IMG/VR virus record: IMGVR_UViG_3300029157_000022
DNA length: 8,915 nucleotides
Reading direction: 5' to 3' (one strand)
Source of the DNA: a virus
Taxonomy: Duplodnaviria > Heunggongvirae > Uroviricota > Caudoviricetes
A program made the position numbers and the translations under genes. Numbering within the stretch: position 1 is the stretch's first letter; each line of letters opens with the position of its first letter. This document shows positions 1 through 8,915 of the stretch, in pieces. The notes beneath the pieces are model-generated. The model searched no databases. It was not told where the DNA came from and saw only the letters and a program-made list of their open reading frames with translations.

Positions 1-69
1 TCTGAGGCAGCACCTGGCACGGCTGGGACGGAAGTCGCTGTCGTTTTCAAAATCGGTGGAGCTGCATGA
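1..69 (+). CDS. Possible 3' end of an upstream gene running off the left edge (frame 1, ...[22 protein letters not shown], stop TGA 67-69); partial
   Basis: Frame 1 is open from the window edge to TGA at 67-69, with Ala/Gly/Thr/Val-rich codons like the downstream genes. Frame 2 is also open to TAA at 110-112, so the frame is uncertain. Too short to call firmly. Confidence 0.2.
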
Positions 70-136
70 CAAAGTCATCGGGCATTATCTGAACATAAAA
101 CACTATCAATAAGTTGGAGTCATTACCAACAACTGA

Positions 137-148
137 AAGGAAAATAAT
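137..148 (+). promoter_or_regulatory. Ribosome-binding region of gene 1 (AAGGAAAATAAT; AGGA core 10 nt before the ATG)
   Basis: Purine-rich Shine-Dalgarno-like AAGGA at 137-141, ATG at 152. The identical 12-mer recurs before gene 2. Confidence 0.6.
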
Positions 149-151
149 CTT

Positions 152-535
152 ATGGCTAACCCATATGGAAAATTAAAAGCAGTGAATGCGGATAACTCCC
201 GTTCACGCTGTAAGGTAGTAGCTTACGCTGCTGATCCAGTGCTGCAAGATCGCCTCGTCAAACTGGCTTCACCTCTCACTGACGATCTTATTGTCGGGGC
301 TTTGCTGAAAGCCGATGGCACCAAAGCAACAACCGCTTCTGATATTGCTCACGTAGTAGTTGAACCGGCTTATGAAGGACAGGAAAGCGTAGTGGTTGCA
401 CATCCTACTTTCGTTATTCTGGCTGAAGATGGGATTGAATTTAACAGCATGGAAAAGGCAAGTGTTATTGCAAAACTGCAATCTCTCGGCTTTGTAATTG
501 CTGGTTATGAAGAACTTGCGATCCCTACGACTTAA
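152..535 (+). CDS. Hypothetical protein, 127 aa; candidate small virion-associated (decoration-like) protein, function unassigned
   Basis: ORF with ATG at 152 and TAA at 533-535, preceded by a strong AAGGA RBS. First of a co-directional gene pair (127 aa then 343 aa) separated by 14 nt. No family recognised by eye. Confidence 0.8.
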   Translation: MANPYGKLKAVNADNSRSRCKVVAYAADPVLQDRLVKLASPLTDDLIVGALLKADGTKATTASDIAHVVVEPAYEGQESVVVAHPTFVILAEDGIEFNSMEKASVIAKLQSLGFVIAGYEELAIPTT

Positions 536-536
536 C

Positions 537-548
537 AAGGAAAATAAT
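537..548 (+). promoter_or_regulatory. Ribosome-binding region of gene 2 (AAGGAAAATAAT; identical 12-mer to 137-148)
   Basis: Exact repeat of the 12-mer found before gene 1, here ending 1 nt before the ATG at 550. Confidence 0.6.
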
Positions 549-549
549 A

Positions 550-1581
550 ATGAATGATTTATCAACATATTTTGGCGTTAATACTGCGGTAGTAACTCCA
601 TTTGCTTATGAGAATGCACTTAATACCCTGATTACTAATCTCGATCTGTTCGATGTGCAATATCATACAGAAAACAGCATTCTTCTTACCGACCTGATTG
701 AGCAGTTTGTGCAGGTAGCCGGGGAAACCTCGCCTTACACTCAAAGCAACTGGAACGCTTCTAAACGTCAGGAATGGTCAAACAAACTTTTCCAGATGAA
801 ACACGTCGGCAGTATTAACGCTGTTACTTCTCGTGACCTGGAACAATACAGCCGCCAATATCCAAACCGTTCTGATGCTATGCTGGTAGCGGTTAATGAT
901 TTCTCTGAGGCTCATTACCGTTCACACGCAAACCGTGTTGAAGTGGATCTGATTACCGCGCTGCTGGGACTGAAAGTTGAATCTGAATATGCCGGACAAG
1001 GTGATCTCGACTTCCTCGACGGTCAGGCTAAAACCACGGTACCCGCTATCGACTTTGCATCGACTACTGTTAACCCGTTCCTTGCTATTCGTAAAGCGGT
1101 GCGCTTACAGAGTGAAAAGCTGGGGTCTGGTCTTGCTGCAAAGCGAACTGGTGTAATTATCTTTGCTGCTGGCGCTGCTGCTGATGGTTTGTCATCTAAC
1201 CCGCTGATCAGTGACATGGTGAAATATGCAGGCGATGCGAGTGCTACGGCCCTGTTTACCCGTATGGTTGATTCTAACCCAGCCTATGACTCTTTCCAGA
1301 TTGGTGGGATCACTGTTATTGATGTGTCAATGTTTCCTGAGATTGTTGCTCACATCGGAGAGAACGGTTTCGCAATTGTCCCGGTAATGGATAAAGCGGC
1401 ACAGTGTTACCAGCTTCATAGCGGCGTTGGTGTGCGTCATGCTGAGTTAGGTCAAGATGCCGTGTTGCATCACCAATATCTAATCAAGGATGAATTCCAA
1501 TTCCCATCTGTGGTTACTGAGACATCTTATCTGCCAGTAAACAACATTCCGCAAGCTATCATCTTCGGATCTGCTGCGTAA
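550..1581 (+). CDS. Hypothetical protein, 343 aa; Ala/Val/Thr/Ser/Asn-rich, candidate major structural (capsid-like) protein, unverified
   Basis: Long ORF (ATG 550, TAA 1579-1581) with a strong RBS and a 14-nt gap after gene 1. The size and small-upstream-partner arrangement resemble decoration/major-capsid gene pairs. No catalytic motif recognised. Confidence 0.85.
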   Translation: MNDLSTYFGVNTAVVTPFAYENALNTLITNLDLFDVQYHTENSILLTDLIEQFVQVAGETSPYTQSNWNASKRQEWSNKLFQMKHVGSINAVTSRDLEQYSRQYPNRSDAMLVAVNDFSEAHYRSHANRVEVDLITALLGLKVESEYAGQGDLDFLDGQAKTTVPAIDFASTTVNPFLAIRKAVRLQSEKLGSGLAAKRTGVIIFAAGAAADGLSSNPLISDMVKYAGDASATALFTRMVDSNPAYDSFQIGGITVIDVSMFPEIVAHIGENGFAIVPVMDKAAQCYQLHSGVGVRHAELGQDAVLHHQYLIKDEFQFPSVVTETSYLPVNNIPQAIIFGSAA

Positions 1582-1593
1582 TAAAGCATTAAT

Positions 1594-1611
1594 AGACGAT
1601 TCCCATCGTCT
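1594..1611 (+). promoter_or_regulatory. Perfect hairpin (7-bp stem AGACGAT/ATCGTCT, 4-nt loop TCCC) just downstream of gene 2; possible attenuator or RNA-stability element
   Basis: Inverted repeat read directly in the sequence. It is not followed immediately by a U-tract; a T-rich run lies further downstream at about 1672-1687. Confidence 0.3.
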
Positions 1612-1734
1612 GGAAAATAATGGTAAAGGGATTAACTAACCTGTAGGCGCAAATACAGTAACGAATCTCTTTGCCCTTTTTGTTTTTCTACTGTCTACAA
1701 ACCCAAATAAAAATATATATGTGAGAGAAAACCA

Positions 1735-1932
1735 ATGAATACAGAAAATTCACAGGCATTAATTCTTAAATCTGTAAAAGAACTGGCAGCTATTAGCGAT
1801 GACTCAATAATCAATGTCAGTGCCTTATGCAGAATGCTTTCAATTGATGCAAATAATGTGCGTCAGCGTGTCTTTCAGACTGGATGTAGCACTTTCGAAG
1901 CAATCCAATATTATTGCTCTAAAAAACAATAA
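1735..1932 (+). CDS. Small hypothetical protein, 65 aa; possible helix-turn-helix-like segment
   Basis: ORF with ATG at 1735 and TAA at 1930-1932, preceded by a weak purine-rich RBS (GAGAGAAA). The segment VSALCRMLSIDANNVRQRV loosely fits a helix-turn-helix pattern. The gene is short, so less certain. Confidence 0.5.
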   Translation: MNTENSQALILKSVKELAAISDDSIINVSALCRMLSIDANNVRQRVFQTGCSTFEAIQYYCSKKQ

Positions 1933-1966
1933 CAAACAACAATCATAATACAGGGAAACAATTAGC

Positions 1967-3808
1967 ATGTTAGAGCTAAACGTGGCACGCCTCTCGAACG
2001 TTGTCACCTTCGAAGTTAACCGACCATCATTAGAGAAAGCAAAAGCAGAAGTAGAAAAACTTCGTAAACAAATGGCGGCGGTGAAAGATATAGAATTGCG
2101 TGTTAAGACACATAAACAATCAACCGCTAAAGCAAAAAAAGACGTAGACGATATTGCTAAAAAGCAAGCACAGGCTGATAAAGCTAATGCTAAAGCACAA
2201 TTAGCCGCTCAACGTGTAGTTGCAAGAGAACAAAAAGCCCTGGCAGCACGCAAAGAGAAGGCAGAATTAAAGCTTTTAGACGTTGGATCAAGCATTAGTG
2301 CAATGCACCGTCTTTCTGTAGCGGAACAATATAAAGCTATTGCACAGGCTAGAGAAATTGCCCTCCAATATGAAAGAGGAGCTATTAGTCTGGCACGTAT
2401 GAATAGCCAAATGAAACGCCTACAACAGCAACAACGTAAGATTAATGGCAATCGTAACGCTCACGCTAAAGCCTATGCACCTGTTAAGGGTAGCGGGAGT
2501 ATTGGCGGCGGTGCTGCGGCTGTTATGCTGGGTGGCTTAGGCGCTGGCGCTACGTATATGGCTATGAGCAAAGCCTCTGAATTTGTTACTAACAGCTTTG
2601 CGAATGCTGAAACGCTGGGTGAATTGTATAGCCGTGCGAAGCTGGGCGGTGTAGACGTTAACCAGATGAACAATATTGAACAATGGGCTTATAAAAACGG
2701 CGTTGATTCAATGATGGGCGAACAAGGTAAACGTAAGTATCTCGATCAGATGAAAGATGTACGGGAGAAGGCTACTAAATCTTATGATGAGGCTGAATAT
2801 GTAGTTGATAAGAAAACTGGTAAAGGAGAATGGAAGGGCGGCGATAGCGGCATCAATACTTTAATGAATGAAGGATTCCTAACTAAAAAGGATCTAAAAG
2901 ACTTTGCTGATAATCCGGCTGGTCTGGTTAGTAAAGCAGTTCAGGGAATGGTAGCTAAAGGCTATTCAGATGCACAAATCGGTAGTCGTCTGGAAGATCT
3001 GGCTGATGATTTGATGCTCACCTCTAAATACTGGACACGCTCCGCTAAAGAAGTGGAACAATCAGCACGAGAACAACGAGAATCAGGGCGCTGGGTAACG
3101 CAGGCACAACAGGAAAGCGTTATTAAATTCCGTGAACTGAATAATGCACTTAGTGGGCTTTCTGACTCACAAGGGATCGCCTTTGTTGATGGCTTTATGA
3201 AATCTCTTGATCCGAAAGTGATTGAAGAGTTTAAAAAGAGCATGGTTGCAATGCTGCCAATGTTTACCAAATTAGGCGAGGCTATCGGCGGATTGGTTAA
3301 CGCTGTAATGAAAGCAATCAACTGGCTGATGAAAAACGACGAGAAGACGGCTGCTATTCAAAAGAATTTAGGTGATGCACCGCCACTGTCTAACGAAGGA
3401 ATGAAGCAGAATCTTTCTAATCTCACTCCTAACCAATATAAAGGCGCTGGCACCGGAACAACTAAGCCAGATAACAGCAATTCCCTGGTTAACACTATTA
3501 AAGGCTGGTTTACGCCAGAAGAGACGGTAGGCGGGGCGCAGGCTGTAAATCAATACACTCTCGAAGGACAAAACATTGCAAATCTGAAACAGAGTGCAGC
3601 ACAACAAGCTATCAAGACTCCTTCTTACACCTTTGCACCTGTTATTAACTTCAATCCAGAATTACAAGTAAATGCAGAAGTGCCGCTAACTATCGAATCA
3701 GACACCGGACGATTGAGCGAATTTATCGACTTCAAATCAAAGGCATCTTCCGCTGAGTTTAGCAAGCTATTAACGCTGGGTGTTATGTCAGGCGGGTCAA
3801 CCTATTAA
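1967..3808 (+). CDS. Hypothetical 613 aa protein: N-terminal Lys/Ala/Gln-rich coiled coil, glycine-zipper hydrophobic segment (aa 175-200), then a roughly 400 aa C-terminal region of unknown function
   Basis: ORF with ATG at 1967 and TAA at 3806-3808; RBS AGGGAAA at 1952-1958. Residues about 20-165 are heptad-like and charged (KAKAEVEKLRKQ...AKKQAQADKANAKAQLAAQ). Residues 175-200 read GSGSIGGGAAAVMLGGLGAGATYMAM (nt 2489-2566). Confidence 0.9.
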   Translation: MLELNVARLSNVVTFEVNRPSLEKAKAEVEKLRKQMAAVKDIELRVKTHKQSTAKAKKDVDDIAKKQAQADKANAKAQLAAQRVVAREQKALAARKEKAELKLLDVGSSISAMHRLSVAEQYKAIAQAREIALQYERGAISLARMNSQMKRLQQQQRKINGNRNAHAKAYAPVKGSGSIGGGAAAVMLGGLGAGATYMAMSKASEFVTNSFANAETLGELYSRAKLGGVDVNQMNNIEQWAYKNGVDSMMGEQGKRKYLDQMKDVREKATKSYDEAEYVVDKKTGKGEWKGGDSGINTLMNEGFLTKKDLKDFADNPAGLVSKAVQGMVAKGYSDAQIGSRLEDLADDLMLTSKYWTRSAKEVEQSAREQRESGRWVTQAQQESVIKFRELNNALSGLSDSQGIAFVDGFMKSLDPKVIEEFKKSMVAMLPMFTKLGEAIGGLVNAVMKAINWLMKNDEKTAAIQKNLGDAPPLSNEGMKQNLSNLTPNQYKGAGTGTTKPDNSNSLVNTIKGWFTPEETVGGAQAVNQYTLEGQNIANLKQSAAQQAIKTPSYTFAPVINFNPELQVNAEVPLTIESDTGRLSEFIDFKSKASSAEFSKLLTLGVMSGGSTY

Positions 3809-3818
3809 TCATCACTGT

Positions 3819-3834
3819 GGGGCGGTTTAGCCCC
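3819..3834 (+). promoter_or_regulatory. GC hairpin (GGGGC / GCCCC, 6-nt loop) between gene 4 stop and gene 5 RBS
   Basis: Inverted repeat read directly in the sequence. No U-tract follows, so it is not a classic terminator. Confidence 0.25.
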
Positions 3835-3855
3835 CTTAAATAAGGATTACAAATT

Positions 3856-4533
3856 ATGGCAATGGGTCCGTTAACCATTGGTCGCCCGACTGAGGCGAAA
3901 ATCAACAGCACAAGCAACGATAGCAACGGTAGAACAACTAAAGGGGGTAACGGCTTTGCGATCATTACCTCTAACCTCGGCAGTGGTGCAAATGCTGCTT
4001 ACAATGACTACCAGGCATTATCATTTGATAGCGTGGAATCGACGAAAGTTAGCCGAAATGCAGACGTTACAAGCTATGCCGTCGAATCAGGATCAGAAGT
4101 TAGTGATCATGTTCAAATACGGAATAACAAGTTCACATTACAAGGGCGTATCTCTGAAACCGTATTGAAGCTCAATCCCGATATGATTAAGAATGCGGGA
4201 ATTAACGGCAATCGACGTATGCTTATGCTTGAATACCTAAATCAGTTGATGGACAGTCGCCAACCTTTCCTACTTGTCACTGAGTTAAAAAATTATGACA
4301 ACGTTGTGTTAGTTGGCATGTCTTACGCAGAAGAAGCAAGCGAAAGCCTATTGTTTACTCTTGATTTTGAGCAAATCCGTCTTGTCTCTAAAGCAACTAC
4401 AAGCGCAATTGCGGTAAAAACAGCACCAAATAAATCTGTAGGGGGACAGGTTAAAATGCAGGTAAATACAACAGAACAGAAAAATCAAAAAAGCCCAGGG
4501 CAAGACGTTGTAACGCCAGTATTTAAACAATAG
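3856..4533 (+). CDS. Hypothetical protein, 225 aa; Ser/Thr/Asn/Gly-rich N-terminal region and Lys/Gln-rich C-terminal tail
   Basis: ORF with ATG at 3856 and TAG at 4531-4533; RBS AAGGA at 3842-3846. Last gene of the co-directional module. Confidence 0.8.
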   Translation: MAMGPLTIGRPTEAKINSTSNDSNGRTTKGGNGFAIITSNLGSGANAAYNDYQALSFDSVESTKVSRNADVTSYAVESGSEVSDHVQIRNNKFTLQGRISETVLKLNPDMIKNAGINGNRRMLMLEYLNQLMDSRQPFLLVTELKNYDNVVLVGMSYAEEASESLLFTLDFEQIRLVSKATTSAIAVKTAPNKSVGGQVKMQVNTTEQKNQKSPGQDVVTPVFKQ

Positions 4534-4574
4534 CCTTAAACGCCTATGAAACGCTCTGTAACGAGATAATCATA

Positions 4575-4610
4575 AAAGAGGCATCAGTCTATATTGAAGC
4601 CTCTTTATTA
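4575..4610. terminator. Candidate bidirectional terminator between the convergent module and the integrase gene (8-bp stem AAAGAGGC/GCCTCTTT, 16-nt loop, then TTATTA)
   Basis: Inverted repeat at 4575-4582 and 4599-4606, in the 80-nt gap between the gene 5 stop (4533) and the integrase stop (4614). The loop is long and the U-tract is imperfect. Confidence 0.45.
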
Positions 4611-4613
4611 CGT

Positions 4614-5891
4614 CTACAGCGTTGTTTTACGCCTTAAATTTGATTTTTTATTGATTGATAAGCCTTTCTCTATTTCAGGGTAGCGTAAAAGCTCAATATA
4701 TTTTTTAAGCTCTACTGGAGAAGCTGCATTCTTGCTATATGTGCGGAATGTTTCTGTATTGCCGCGTGTATGGCCCAGGAGAAGGGCGATCCTGTCTTCT
4801 GGAATTTGATTTCGATCAAGAAGCTGTGCTACTCCGTGTCTCAGAGAATGAAACACTTTCCTTTCTGTTCCCTTTTCCCCTAAAGCCTTTCGTTTAGCTC
4901 TTGTAAATCTCTGCGTATGCCACGTGGAACGTTTACCATCAGCACGCTCTGTAATGCTGGCGTGATAGAACAAAAAGCCATTGTGAGGCTTTTCACGCAG
5001 CGACAACACCAACGGAGTGATAAGGCTATGTACAGGCACAACACGTGCCGCTGCTTTCGTCTTTCCCTGTGTGATTTCAAAACACAGCACACCTTCGATC
5101 TCTTTCACATCGTCTATTGTGAGACTTGCTATCTCATTGATCCGCATACCTGTATAGGCACCGATAAGACACAAAGCCATCATTTCTTTGTTTTCTGCTG
5201 AATCACCGGAAAATACTTGCAACACCTGCAATAGCTCTTTGTTAGAAAATGCCTCGTAGCTCTCTCTACTTTGTGCCACATCAAGCCTATGCCCTCGCCA
5301 GGGGGAGAGCGCCCTTTCTGGCGCATCGTGGTAACGTGATGAAGCTAATTCCCATAGCTGGGCCATTGGGCTGATATAATTTGCAATTGATTGTTGTGAA
5401 AGGGTTTTTTGCATGTGTTCAATCCAGCCTGTAACAGTGGTGCGGCTTACATCTTGCAATGCAATATCAGGCTTTTTACGGTAGGAGAGAAACATCTCTA
5501 CCGCTTTTCTTGCCTTAGCTAAAGTGGCTGGCTTATTCTTCGTGCTGTTAATTGTCAGGTAGATTTCAAGAATTTTAAGCAATGACGGACACGAAGACGC
5601 TGTATCTTGCATTCTGGTAGCTGTTTTGGCGTATTTAGCCTTACTGCGTAACAGTTCCAGCGTGTTTTCTATTGTGCTGTTTACAGGGGCGACACTCTCC
5701 CGTAAGCAATGGTATTCATCTGCAATCTGATCACGCTTTCTACGTGCAACACGAAGATTACTTGTGTGTAGACTTCTGACAAACGTCCTTTTTCCTTCAA
5801 AAAAGGGCTGCATATACACAGGCAGCGTTATCCTTAAATAGTAGTTACCGTAAGAATCACAGATTAAGTATTGGTTAGGCTTGTATCTCAT
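4614..5891 (-). CDS. int: Tyrosine recombinase / phage-type integrase (425 aa from the RBS-supported ATG; the open frame continues to a TTG at 5978)
   Basis: Catalytic-domain signatures are present: GMRINE (box I Arg), HSLRHG (His-x-x-Arg), LLGH, and a terminal Tyr in FRTYSK. The ATG at 5889-5891 has GGAG 5 nt upstream on the minus strand. The gene lies beside a tRNA 3' fragment. Confidence 0.9.
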   Translation of the reverse strand: MRYKPNQYLICDSYGNYYLRITLPVYMQPFFEGKRTFVRSLHTSNLRVARRKRDQIADEYHCLRESVAPVNSTIENTLELLRSKAKYAKTATRMQDTASSCPSLLKILEIYLTINSTKNKPATLAKARKAVEMFLSYRKKPDIALQDVSRTTVTGWIEHMQKTLSQQSIANYISPMAQLWELASSRYHDAPERALSPWRGHRLDVAQSRESYEAFSNKELLQVLQVFSGDSAENKEMMALCLIGAYTGMRINEIASLTIDDVKEIEGVLCFEITQGKTKAAARVVPVHSLITPLVLSLREKPHNGFLFYHASITERADGKRSTWHTQRFTRAKRKALGEKGTERKVFHSLRHGVAQLLDRNQIPEDRIALLLGHTRGNTETFRTYSKNAASPVELKKYIELLRYPEIEKGLSINKKSNLRRKTTL

Positions 5892-5985
5892 AAAATCTCC
5901 GGCTAAAGTGTCGGAGCGTTTGTAATGTGAAAATTGATTGTGATGCATAGAAAATGATGATTTTTCTATAAGATTCAATCAATTA

Positions 5986-6052
5986 GTAATGGTCGTAGGT
6001 GATGGCATTAACACGAGATTAATCGAGTGTTTTACTCCTATTATCGGCACCA
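5986..6052 (+). other. tRNA-Thr-like remnant / attachment-site core: 3'-terminal 19 nt ACTCCTATTATCGGCACCA (6034-6052) plus upstream tRNA-like pieces GTAAT and GGTCGTAGGT (5986-6000); not an intact tRNA
   Basis: The segment ends in the CCA acceptor with a T-arm-like ACTCC. As I recall it, this matches the 3' end of E. coli tRNA-Thr(CGU) thrW. No complete cloverleaf can be formed, since the 5' half is replaced by unrelated sequence. Confidence 0.5.
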
Positions 6053-6178
6053 TTAAAATCAAAGAGTTACCCCATATTTAAATACACCACGTTTCCTCCT
6101 GTGCCGTATTTGTGCCATTGTAACCTTGGCAATTCATCAAAATACTGTTCTGACATCAGGCAGTGCAGGTGCAGACAT

Positions 6179-6499
6179 TTAAGCCAATTGCTGCCGCCAT
6201 TCTTTGACGTAGTCAATCAGGGCGCGGAGCTTTGGTGCAATATTGCGACGCTGTGGGAAATACAGATAGAAGCCCGGAAATTGTGGAAGAAAGTCATCAA
6301 GCAGCGATACAAGCTTACCGCTTTCAATATATGGCCTGAAAGTTTCCTGAGTGGCAATTGTTATTCCTCCGCCGGCAAGAGCCAGCCTCAACATCAGACG
6401 CAGATCATTAGTCGTAATCTGCGGTTCAATCGCAAGGTCGAAAGTTCTCCCGTTTTCTTCAAATGGCCAGCGATAAGGCGCAACCTCCGGGGACTGACG
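6179..6499 (-). pseudogene. yagP: 5'-truncated LysR-family transcriptional regulator remnant (C-terminal part of the effector-binding domain only; no HTH domain)
   Basis: The open frame from the stop at 6500-6502 to the stop at 6179-6181 encodes about 106 aa ending ...GGGITIATQETFRPYIESGKLVSLLDDFLPQFPGFYLYFPQRRNIAPKLRALIDYVKEWRQQLA, typical of a LysR C-terminus. Only 65 nt separate it from the upstream paoD stop, so the N-terminal roughly 200 aa are absent. The symbol is from recalled K-12 synteny. Confidence 0.6.
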
Positions 6500-6567
6500 C
6501 TAGCCGATACACTTATGGGTATTTCCCCCGGAGGCGAGAAAGCGCTCTCCACGCCCGGCCGCAAGGA

Positions 6568-7524
6568 TCAGGACGACGGGGGCAGGCATGAATCCTCCTC
6601 CTGATGGAGACGTACAGAGGCGACTTCTGCCAGCACGGAGAGTGCCAGAGTATGCGCATCCCGGGCTTTGGGGAATATCCCGACGGGTGCCCGGATTTGC
6701 GTTGTTTCCTCCCTGGACCATCCCAGCTCGTGGAGCTTTTGCAGACGTAACGTGTGGGTTCGATAGCTGCCCAATGCGCCGAGATAAAAGGGTTTTGCTT
6801 CTCGCGCGGCCTGCAACACTGGCAGCTCCCGGTTGAGATCATGGCACAGCAAAATGACCGCCGTATCGGTATCGATCTGAGCGCTGGCTGAGGCCGGAAA
6901 AAGATCGAAGATATGGCTGTCATAGCCTGTGGCTGCTGCAAGACTCGCGGTTGCCTGCGCCTCAAGAGAACGTCCGTAAATCATCAGCCTGACGCATGGC
7001 CTGAACCCCACCTCAAAGCCATTGAGATTCCAGCCCGTCCGGGTTTGCGTGGGCAGGCACACCAGCGATTGTGCTTGCGGATCGTAGCGCAGCCCCACCG
7101 GTTTTCTCTGTTCCAGGCGGTTCAGCACGGCGAGCAGAGGCTGTGCCGAGCGTAGTTTATGGAGCGTCAGCGTGATCCCACCGCCGCAGGGCAGAACGAT
7201 GTCAAACCACGGCGAACCTTCGCCATAGCGAATTTCGCGATCGCGGCCTGAGCCCATCATCTCCAGCGCTTCAAAAGCGGCAGCGGCCTCCACGCAGCCG
7301 CCAGAGACAAAACCGCAGTAACGACCATCTTCGCGCACCACCATCTGCGCCCCGAGCGGGCGCGCCGCGCCGCCGCGTATCTCCACCAGCGTCACCAGCA
7401 CCGCTCCTTTACCGGACATTAGCGCCTCTACGGCGAAGCGCAGAATGGTCCGGTGGTCATCGGTGAGAAACGCCTGCTCTGGCTTATGCCAGTGTTCGTC
7501 TTTGTCAAAAAGCGGGTATGACAT
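6568..7524 (-). CDS. paoD: XdhC-family molybdenum cofactor insertion chaperone for aldehyde oxidoreductase (318 aa)
   Basis: ORF of 318 aa with ATG at 7522-7524 and a perfect GGAGG 5 nt upstream. It lies immediately downstream of the molybdopterin-subunit gene, and the product and symbol follow from that synteny and a recalled match to E. coli yagQ/paoD. Confidence 0.75.
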   Translation of the reverse strand: MSYPLFDKDEHWHKPEQAFLTDDHRTILRFAVEALMSGKGAVLVTLVEIRGGAARPLGAQMVVREDGRYCGFVSGGCVEAAAAFEALEMMGSGRDREIRYGEGSPWFDIVLPCGGGITLTLHKLRSAQPLLAVLNRLEQRKPVGLRYDPQAQSLVCLPTQTRTGWNLNGFEVGFRPCVRLMIYGRSLEAQATASLAAATGYDSHIFDLFPASASAQIDTDTAVILLCHDLNRELPVLQAAREAKPFYLGALGSYRTHTLRLQKLHELGWSREETTQIRAPVGIFPKARDAHTLALSVLAEVASVRLHQEEDSCLPPSS

Positions 7525-7533
7525 TGTTCCTCC

Positions 7534-8915
7534 TTAAACCACATCCGGCAGCTTATCGAGCAGCTTATCCAGAGTGATGGGATAATCCCGTACCCGAATA
7601 CCGGTGGCGTTATACACCGCGTTGGCGATAGCCGCGCTCACGCCGCACAGGCCCAGCTCACCGACACCTTTGGCCTTCATCGGGGAGGATATGGGGTCGG
7701 TATCATCCAGGAAAATCACCTCCTGTTTTGGGATATCCGCATGAACCGGCACCTCATACCCCGCCATATCGTGATTAACGAAGTAGCCCAAACGGTCATC
7801 CACCGCCAGCTCCTCCATCAGTGCCGCGCCCATGCCCATAGTCATTGCGCCAATGACCTGGCTGCGCGCAGTTTTCGGATTCAGGATGCGTCCTGCAGCA
7901 CACACAGCGAGCATACGCCGGACCCGAACTTCTCCCGTCGCGCTATGCACGCCGACCTCCACAAAATGCCCGGCAAAGGTCGACTGCTGGTACTCTTTGC
8001 TCAGTGTTCCGAATTCAATGCTCTCTTCCGCTGTCAGTCTGCCGCCTGCGGTGGCTTCATGTAGCGTGGCGCTTCGGGTACCGTTGGTAATCTTGCCGTC
8101 GGCAAACTGCGACTGCTCAGGATCAAACCCGACTGCCGAGGCAATCATTTCGCGAAGCTTCATACAGGCGGCGTAAACGCCGGAGGTGGAGGTATTCGCG
8201 CCCCATTGTCCACCAGAACCCGCAGAAACCGGGAAACTGGAATCGCCGAGGTGAACCGCAACCTGCTCCAGCGGTACGCCAAGCATTTCCGCTGCCGTCT
8301 GGGCCAGAATGGTGTAGCTGCCGGTGCCAATGTCGGTCATGTCCGTTTCTACGGTAACGGTGCCGTTTTGTTCGAGGTGAACCCGAGCACCCGATTTTTC
8401 CAGCAGATTATTGCGAAAGCCCGCCGCAACACCGTGGCCGACTAGCCACTCCCCGTCGCGCACCTGTCCGGGTGTGGCGTTGCGCTGCTTCCAGCCAAAT
8501 TTATCCGCTCCGGTGCGCAAGCACTCGATAAGCTGACGGCGAGAGAAGCAGCGCGTCGGGTCGGCGGGGTCAACCTGAGTGTCATTCAGGATGCGAAACT
8601 CGACGGGATCGATGCCCGCTTTTTCCGCCAGTTCGTCGATCGCGATTTCGAGCGCCATCAGACCGGGGGCTTCGCCGGGCGCACGCATGGCGTTCCCTTC
8701 CGGCAAATCAAGCGTGGCGAGCCGCAGGCCGGTATGACGATTCGCCCCGGCGTAGAGTAATTCGCTTTGCTGTACCGCCGTTTCCGGCGTGCCGCCGGGC
8801 AGGTTTCCAGACCAGCTTTCATGTGAGATAGCGGTGATTTTCCCGCTCTGGTCGGCACCGATACGCAAGTGCTGAAGGGTGGCGGGGCGGTGCGTGGTGT
8901 TATTGGGAATAGAGG
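7534..8915 (-). CDS. paoC: Aldehyde oxidoreductase molybdopterin-binding large subunit, C-terminal about 460 aa (partial; 5' end beyond the right edge)
   Basis: The frame is open on the minus strand from the window edge to TAA at 7534-7536. The ORF-track start at 8868 is an internal TTG, not the true start. Product and symbol rest on synteny with the downstream chaperone gene and a recalled match to E. coli yagR/paoC. Confidence 0.75.
   Translation of the reverse strand, partial: SIPNNTTHRPATLQHLRIGADQSGKITAISHESWSGNLPGGTPETAVQQSELLYAGANRHTGLRLATLDLPEGNAMRAPGEAPGLMALEIAIDELAEKAGIDPVEFRILNDTQVDPADPTRCFSRRQLIECLRTGADKFGWKQRNATPGQVRDGEWLVGHGVAAGFRNNLLEKSGARVHLEQNGTVTVETDMTDIGTGSYTILAQTAAEMLGVPLEQVAVHLGDSSFPVSAGSGGQWGANTSTSGVYAACMKLREMIASAVGFDPEQSQFADGKITNGTRSATLHEATAGGRLTAEESIEFGTLSKEYQQSTFAGHFVEVGVHSATGEVRVRRMLAVCAAGRILNPKTARSQVIGAMTMGMGAALMEELAVDDRLGYFVNHDMAGYEVPVHADIPKQEVIFLDDTDPISSPMKAKGVGELGLCGVSAAIANAVYNATGIRVRDYPITLDKLLDKLPDVV

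Follow-up and report, generated by a model that had tools for sequence, protein, structure and literature searches.

Among described phage satellites, P4 uses the P2 capsid protein with the external scaffold Sid and encodes a primase-helicase (alpha), and PLE of Vibrio cholerae takes the coat protein of its helper ICP1 and shrinks the capsid with the scaffold TcaP; the helpers of those phage-inducible chromosomal islands that form capsids (cf-PICIs) are temperate phages of ~40 kb. The cf-PICIs themselves, integrative and helper-dependent, measure ~13–14 kb, occur in Enterobacteriaceae and carry a gene for an HK97-fold capsid protein of their own (PMC10085698), together with terS, terL, portal, protease, head–tail adaptor and connector genes, tail genes being 'forbidden' in the SatelliteFinder model (PMC10085698). 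Here we describe an 8,915-nucleotide stretch of the IMG/VR virus record IMGVR_UViG_3300029157_000022 (the whole of it is called the window below), in which five genes run towards a convergent integrase gene at one end of a chromosomal island. Using computational evidence throughout, we arrive at a probability of roughly 0.6 that the island is a helper-dependent satellite of lytic phi92/phAPEC8-like myophages (Stephanstirmvirinae) and that the five genes form its particle-building module.

The element resembles each of these systems in part. With cf-PICIs it shares its size, its integrative habit, a predicted HK97-fold capsid protein of its own and a presumed need of a helper for the remaining virion parts; unlike them, it has no terminase, portal, protease or connectors, and has a tape measure and a tube initiator. 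Like P4 it integrates at a tRNA gene, falls near the ~11–13 kb size of P4-like elements, appears to carry a packaging site copied from its helper (cos in P4, a terminal-repeat boundary here) and encodes a possible capsid decoration protein (Psu in P4); the class of helper differs, however, and no island protein gave a Pfam or PHROG match to psu, sid, delta or alpha. PLE, at ~18 kb, is likewise a small integrative island tied to a large (125–150 kb) lytic myophage, the tie of the present element being an apparent one; PLE has an iteron-type replicon, as the present element probably does, and the helper capsids belong to the same structural clade, the ICP1 capsid being among the top fold matches described below. 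The element nonetheless shows no homology to PLE genes (no RepA_N or other PLE-type matches), lives in a different host family and encodes proteins missing from PLE, namely a capsid protein, a tape measure and, in some members, a tube initiator, and it is known from sequence alone. With a large lytic myophage as putative helper and an Odn-like gene on the phage side, it appears closest to PLE and ICP1 in its way of working, a resemblance that would be functional only, and its gene content looks like that of a novel phage-satellite family with an unprecedented hijacking gene set.

Results

Predicted products of the five-gene module

Cryo-electron microscopy of phi92 (PMC13450770) has assigned gp123 as the cement protein, gp124 as the capsid protein, gp134 as a trimeric tape measure and gp135 as a hexameric tube initiator. 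Four of the element's proteins follow the order of this phi92/phAPEC8 structural module, the tape measure and tube initiator as clear homologues and the capsid protein as a distant, full-length one. Whereas the phages have about nine genes between capsid and tape measure (head completion, neck, sheath, tube and chaperones), the element has in their place a single gene for a 65-amino-acid (aa) helix-turn-helix (HTH) protein; the genes of the island form part of an integrative replicon of 13 kb.

The 343-aa product is predicted to be a major capsid protein with the HK97 fold, of the lambda gpE family. Pfam PF03864 (Phage major capsid protein E) was matched by 10 of the 14 members of the family, at best with 1.6e-8, whereas the protein of the window falls below threshold; PHROG 29 was matched by the 343-aa protein at 3e-5. 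A profile of the family picked out the major head protein of phage inny among 1,203 open reading frames (ORFs; 3e-8), and the 343-aa protein aligns over its full length, at 21% identity, with the capsid protein of phage phiWec188. The top 20 Foldseek matches were all HK97 capsid proteins (PhiTE, ICP1, Bas63, Sf14, lambda), the query being a low-confidence model with a predicted local distance difference test (pLDDT) score of 51. Relatives of this capsid protein form 17 clusters among 5.8 billion proteins.

Sequence comparison identifies the 613-aa product as a full-length homologue of the phi92 tape measure gp134 (4.6e-21). It matches PHROG 16051, 'tail length tape measure', at 1e-30, and its family profile finds the inny protein inny_105 at 5e-106; it aligns end-to-end with the 651-aa tape measure protein (TMP) of phiWec188, with both termini conserved, and has a glycine-rich hydrophobic segment at about residues 175–200. 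The TMP gene belongs to the core of the family, its products measuring 600–634 aa in islands versus 651–659 aa in phages. In a collection of 50,697 phage records, TMPs of E. coli and Klebsiella elements alike matched mostly Stephanstirmvirinae (Phapecoctavirus and Justusliebigvirus), with no family of a different tail type among the matches.

The 225-aa product, in turn, is a homologue of the Dit-like tube initiator gp135 of phi92 (21vq_N, 4.9e-53); the tube initiators 9cuy_K and 7yfz_a were also matched, as was PF21821 (Dit_like) at 1.4e-27, where the score of 96.7 bits exceeds the cut-off of 24.2. In phAPEC8-like phages, the gene directly 3' of the TMP gene encodes a protein 53% identical to it. 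Its best matches are in Phapecoctavirus phages, with weaker ones in phages that infect Klebsiella, Pseudomonas, Cronobacter and further hosts. Among family members, only the two E. coli variants and Phytobacter have this gene.

For the two small proteins we offer candidate roles. The 127-aa product is possibly a capsid decoration (cement) protein: its gene lies directly upstream of the capsid gene, the position of phi92 gp123 (130 aa), and one distant member of its family matched PHROG 2680, 'head decoration', at 1.7e-5. The family profile is co-linear with the decoration proteins 9zbi_G, 9c2d_J and 9ncf_J at non-significant scores, and hhalign against three phi92-type cement proteins returned only a 28-column motif at 10% probability, so that the signals linking it to the beta-tulip decoration/cement class typified by gp123 are positional and sub-threshold; its AlphaFold2 model (pLDDT 42) was unusable. 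The gene is a core gene of the family, with a ratio of non-synonymous to synonymous substitution rates (dN/dS) of 0–0.18, and its product has 24 relatives. The 65-aa product is weakly indicated to be a small HTH protein, by sub-threshold matches only (Sigma70_r4_2 in six of nine family members, HTH_17 and excisionase PHROGs). Profile searches gave it no significant family assignment, and its family profile found no homologue in phage inny; its gene keeps the same position in nine family members, and an excisionase/AlpA-like regulator or a packaging-specificity factor are candidate roles.

A family of integrative elements with one reduced gene set

The genome of the Shiga toxin-producing E. coli (STEC) strain STEC316 carries this DNA, at 98.3% identity, in an island of 12,871 bp, of which it forms the integrase-proximal end; the island extends from thrW to a 20-bp repeat and adjoins a yagP remnant and paoD/paoC; at least 80% of window positions 1–6100 is found in 139 of 5,426 complete E. 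coli genomes (~2.6%). Elsewhere the STEC316 island has genes for a serine invertase, for a 55-aa protein and for a 208-aa Rep-like protein with an HTH_36 domain, besides several small ORFs. Neither this 12.9-kb island nor its relatives contain portal, terminase, protease, neck, sheath, tube, baseplate wedge, fibre or lysis genes.

We examined the genomic contexts of two of the 17 capsid clusters and of eight loci from a genome scan. All have one layout: regulators, a Rep-like gene, small genes, the 127-aa gene, the capsid gene, the HTH gene, the TMP gene, a tube-initiator gene in some, and a convergent integrase gene. This layout recurs in two Escherichia variants (the second at glyU) and in Klebsiella, Citrobacter, Buttiauxella, Kosakonia, Phytobacter, Scandinavium and Raoultella, and the family as a whole spans at least ten enterobacterial genera and two tRNA sites, with proteins 22–87% identical. 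Exact att repeats of 20–34 bp, matching the 3' ends of tRNA-Thr(CGT) or tRNA-Gly(CCC), surround four elements with both borders on the contig, of 12,689, 12,871, 12,969 and 14,263 bp. In common with satellites generally, then, these elements have their own tyrosine integrase and att repeats and lack a full set of virion and lysis genes.

Because one reduced gene set, order and size recur across at least ten genera, the five-gene module is a conserved core of the element and not cargo, the tube initiator alone being variable. The five genes are real and under purifying selection, each having a dN/dS within 0–0.24 whether compared with a copy of 98% identity or with one of 42–87% identity. In Yersinia massiliensis (L014 9920–14774) we observed the same order of capsid, TMP and convergent integrase genes, at 29%, 28% and 24% identity, respectively, which suggests for the family a greater age and a broader distribution than Enterobacteriaceae sensu stricto.

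A candidate replication module was also seen. The thrW element has 22-bp iterons in 4.4 copies, followed by AT-rich repeats, upstream of its regulatory and Rep-like genes, and the Klebsiella element, the E. coli glyU variant and the Phytobacter element have tandem repeats of their own at the same relative place (Table 1). These are probably iteron origins that co-vary with the Rep-like protein; the HTH_36 protein gave weak matches to replication-initiator PHROGs (1e-7 to 3e-9), with no primase or helicase.

These results bear on the initial annotation of the module, made from the window's letters and ORF list, which had placed no product in a named family and called the function unassigned: for three of the five products (capsid, tape measure and tube initiator) that was wrong. 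Of the two readings it weighed, the one that foresaw a minimal virion-like module, with a structural 343-aa protein and a tape-measure-like protein on a satellite-like element without portal, terminase, tube or lysis genes, is essentially correct, with support from the homologies to phi92 gp124, gp134 and gp135, from comparative genomics and from the gene content of the island and its relatives. The other, anti-phage cargo in a variable slot, finds no support: all five proteins were without a PADLOC match, the Rep-like protein gives generic HTH matches only, and four of the five genes are conserved core, just the 225-aa gene being present or absent between members. The suggestion that the system was undescribed also stands, in that the literature searched holds no description of the family, a coverage that is incomplete and leaves most subscription journals outside, so that a prior description is possible.

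Links to phi92/phAPEC8-type phages

Links beyond the structural genes were sought by blastn with the island's non-structural half. A 78–83 bp stretch in the E. coli members (Table 1) is ~82% identical to a non-coding stretch in ~65 phAPEC8-like genomes. In WPEC4 and Schickermooser the matched DNA lies across the inner edge of the direct terminal repeat of 328/329 bp, and the island copy covers the final 53–56 nucleotides (nt) of the phage genome plus 21–22 nt past the repeat boundary, as at a concatemer junction; it includes the exact 20-mer TTGTCGCTGCGTGGACCTGA, and at the end point it keeps TTCGCGTTA|AA. A terminal repeat of 328 bp has been reported for Schickermooser (PMC6563267) and for the subfamily (PMC12695924). 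The mimic looks as a copied terminase cut site would, and the E. coli members have in it a putative helper-matched packaging signal of the kind found in satellites. The neighbouring serine invertase gene shows 100% identity when the E. coli elements at thrW and glyU are compared, which in their remainder are only 33–87% identical, and invertase and mimic seem to move as one cassette. In the Klebsiella element (L003 5956–6001) we observed a different, 48-bp match of 87.5% identity to non-coding DNA near the genome ends of T5-like Salmonella phages (E = 1e-4), which might represent a promoter or point to another helper.

A second link is more nearly identical. Positions 16653–16882 of the island locus L001 are 96.5% identical to phage inny, and positions 16653–16894 are 97.9% identical to phage muut. 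The island's 55-aa protein encoded here (L001 16665–16832) resembles a ribbon-helix-helix regulator and shares 98% identity with inny_185 (L027 2513–2695), a similarity that indicates a very recent exchange of genes between island and phage.

Adjoining inny_185 is the gene for inny_184, which combines two HTH_36 domains with a nuclease-like domain. Its first HTH is 36% identical to the Rep-like protein of the thrW island, with an identical ALPLTDAHITPP motif, and its second is 75% identical to the Rep-like protein of the glyU island; the island iterons are absent from the inny genome. Phage ICP1 encodes the nuclease Odn, which copies the DNA-binding domain of PLE RepA and cuts the PLE origin (PMC8263062), and inny_184 shares its architecture of a Rep-like DNA-binding part and a T5orf172 nuclease domain (PMC8263062). 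By this analogy, inny_184 looks like an anti-satellite nuclease of the ICP1 Odn type with two specificities, a lead that fits an arms race between these phages and the island family.

Organization of the window

The ORF list gives exactly the five intact, co-directional genes of the initial annotation, on the plus strand at 152–4533, and the short spacing it described is seen in intergenic gaps of 14, 153, 34 and 47 nt. Its strong AAGGA-type ribosome-binding sites hold up in part: purine-rich motifs resembling ribosome-binding sites precede all five genes, as AAAGGAAAA for gene 1, AAGGAAAA for gene 2 and TAAGGAT for gene 5, but those of gene 3 (GAGAGAAAA) and gene 4 (CAGGGAAA) are weaker. In the 153-nt gap 3' of the capsid gene (1582–1734) we observed a short hairpin (AGACGA...TCGTCT) and a T-rich tract; these may be an attenuator, through which the tail genes downstream would be expressed less than the capsid gene. 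The hairpin said to be common to the module and the convergent integrase gene was located (Table 1); it is likely to be a bidirectional terminator and was not flagged by a simple terminator scan.

Table 1. Features of the window and of related loci. Positions are those of the window unless preceded by a locus (L) number or accession.
Feature	Position	Strand	Remarks
IS1 3' end (presumed)	1-127	+	ends in terminal inverted repeat; same orientation as module
Gene 1, 127 aa	152-535	+	from ORF list
Gene 2, 343 aa	550-1581	+	from ORF list
Gene 3, 65 aa	1735-1932	+	from ORF list
Gene 4, 613 aa	1967-3808	+	from ORF list
Gene 5, 225 aa	3856-4533	+	from ORF list
Hairpin	4575-4606		AAAGAGGC...GCCTCTTT, -21.4 kcal/mol, z = -2.9, between convergent stop codons
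Tyrosine integrase	4614-5978	-	Pfam Phage_integrase, DUF6538, Phage_int_SAM_5
attR core	6034-6053	+	20-bp exact direct repeat of thrW tRNA-Thr 3' end; right border of island
Terminal-repeat boundary mimic	L001 14294-14371		non-coding, beside serine invertase gene; upstream island part, outside window
Variant-specific tandem repeats (22, 23, 32 bp)	L001 15434-15530; L006 4601-4653; L003 5203-5292 (Klebsiella); L011 2919-3001
inny_184, 367 aa	L027 2733-3836; MN850601.1 119446-120549		two HTH_36 domains and C-terminal T5orf172/MUG113 nuclease-like domain; adjoins inny_185

The integrase is annotated as a tyrosine recombinase in the 139 genomes; its RefSeq equivalent starts at 5891 (425 aa), as against the ORF end at 5978. 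The label of tRNA-Thr-site island given in the initial annotation is correct, because the right border repeats the thrW 3' end and the STEC316 island lies between thrW and that repeat; the window itself contains no tRNA gene detectable by ARAGORN, and thrW was the sole match in an Rfam scan of the entire island. The island has a GC content of 37–49% versus 55–63% in the pao flank. Beyond the island, the right flank (6179–8868; 55–63% GC) is ordinary E. coli chromosome, with a remnant of the LysR-type gene yagP, paoD and the 3' part of paoC.

At its other end, the window opens within an insertion sequence (IS). We take bases 1–127 to be IS1; they match tens of thousands of sites in E. coli genomes, and similarity to related islands begins at base 128. 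The insertion, 24 nt upstream of gene 1, falls within the 3' end of a 65-aa ORF that precedes the module in the island. The junction of IS1 and island occurs in none of the complete E. coli genomes, so that an IS1-rich strain, or Shigella, may be the source of the window. A separate insertion, of ISKpn26 (IS5-like), disrupts the tube-initiator gene in the island of the O104:H4 outbreak lineage.

Discussion

We infer a cycle of induction, small-capsid assembly, packaging and transfer that would run as follows. The element, ~12.9 kb and resident in thrW (other members in glyU), would be excised by its tyrosine integrase on infection by the helper and would replicate from its iteron origin by means of its HTH Rep-like protein. 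Its capsid protein, probably with the 127-aa protein as decoration, would build a small shell on the helper portal, and the helper would also supply protease/scaffold and neck proteins; the fitting size of shell for a genome of 13 kb would be about T=3–4, versus T=13 for phi92. The helper terminase would then recognize the element's copy of the terminal-repeat boundary and package the element, the filled capsids would join helper tails containing the element's tape measure and, in some members, its tube initiator, and the particles would be released by helper lysis, the DNA integrating in a new cell. A fuller version of this proposal, which we advance tentatively and hold to be somewhat short of an even bet, is that these elements are the first satellite family of Enterobacteriaceae to live on large, strictly lytic myophages, one that brings its own capsid and tape measure (sometimes a tube initiator), steals portal, terminase, neck, sheath, tube and baseplate, and carries a copied terminal-repeat cut site, and that inny and muut counter it with an Odn-like chimeric nuclease bearing DNA-binding domains from two satellite variants.

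Several observations weigh against a satellite of these phages. The capsid protein has no tblastn match in the 50,697 phage records (E ≤ 1e-3) and is only ~21% identical to that of the putative helper, so its compatibility with the helper portal and scaffold is assumed only. The 127-aa profile has no significant decoration match among solved structures or in the inny proteome. The mimic spans only one boundary of the 328-bp repeat; mimic and 20-mer are found only in the two E. coli variants and are absent from the members in other genera. A 44-mer spanning the attP junction had zero matches in metagenome and IMG/VR contigs, and the matches in IMG/VR are nearly all prophage-style calls from isolate genomes; all of these relatives are E. 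coli copies almost identical to one another, most of them taken from isolate genomes, and so do not speak for encapsidation. The window's own copy may be inactive or silent, because in that strain IS1 stands between the module and the remainder of the island. Finally, we know of no satellite that requires its own tape measure; control of ejection or entry, evasion of exclusion and interference with helper tails are possible reasons for having one.

Some of these points would equally suit a satellite of a different, unsampled helper, drawn from uncharacterized and possibly temperate relatives with a closer capsid protein, in which case common descent and gene exchange now and then would be all that lies behind the links to Stephanstirmvirinae. 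Such a helper would account for a capsid protein unmatched in the phage collection and 21% identical to the phi92 type, for the members in other genera that lack the phAPEC8-type end mimic, and for the weak 48-bp match of the Klebsiella element near T5-like phage ends. We think it unlikely, however, given that TMP matches are dominated by Phapecoctavirus and Justusliebigvirus, that the best tube-initiator matches are to Phapecoctavirus, and that the 98%-identical gene and the mimic with its exact 20-mer show current physical contact with these phages. We give a similarly low probability to a defence island that poisons assembly, in which an element not, or no longer, transferred would use its capsid, tape-measure and tube-initiator paralogues as dominant-negative decoys, yielding defective phi92/phAPEC8-like heads or tails and protecting the population, in the logic of Tai systems and of PLE interference. 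Incorporation into tails is plausible for a TMP that keeps both partner-contacting termini and a tube initiator 53% identical to that of the phage, interference with tail assembly is a documented defence of satellites and prophages (PMC11364771), and the nuclease-like chimera inny_184 suggests that the island harms these phages. Yet decoys alone leave unexplained the uniform size of 12.7–14.3 kb, the iteron replicon, the terminal-repeat mimic and the spread to at least ten genera and two tRNA sites with intact att repeats, and there were no PADLOC matches. Interference and satellite transfer are in any case mutually compatible, as PLE demonstrates.

The absence of most virion genes, together with the IS1 in the window copy and ISKpn26 in the O104:H4 copies, might instead suggest an inert remnant, the leftovers of a decayed temperate myophage at thrW with no present function; the site is a known prophage hotspot, occupied in K-12 by CP4-6. 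We rejected decay of a prophage on the grounds of conservation, selection and size uniformity, and regard such a remnant as very improbable: the reduced gene set and its order are kept at 22–87% identity across at least ten genera and two sites, with intact ORFs, dN/dS of 0–0.24 and exact att repeats, and independent decay would not converge on one architecture and size.

If the element is a satellite of phi92/phAPEC8-like phages, programs that search for satellites would miss its family, because they forbid tail genes and require terminase or portal genes in satellites that encode capsids. The putative helpers are widely isolated, their use in therapy and biocontrol has been proposed against E. 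coli and Klebsiella, and ~2.6% of complete E. coli genomes, including those of O104:H4 and STEC lineages, would harbour a resident satellite that affects the efficacy and host range of such phages and moves DNA between genera. An arms race of the type fought by PLE and ICP1 would thereby extend to the best-studied bacterial family, with a possible phage nuclease directed at the satellite's origin, and the element would provide a tractable E. coli model for the assembly of a foreign capsid on a helper portal and for roles of tape measures beyond measuring.

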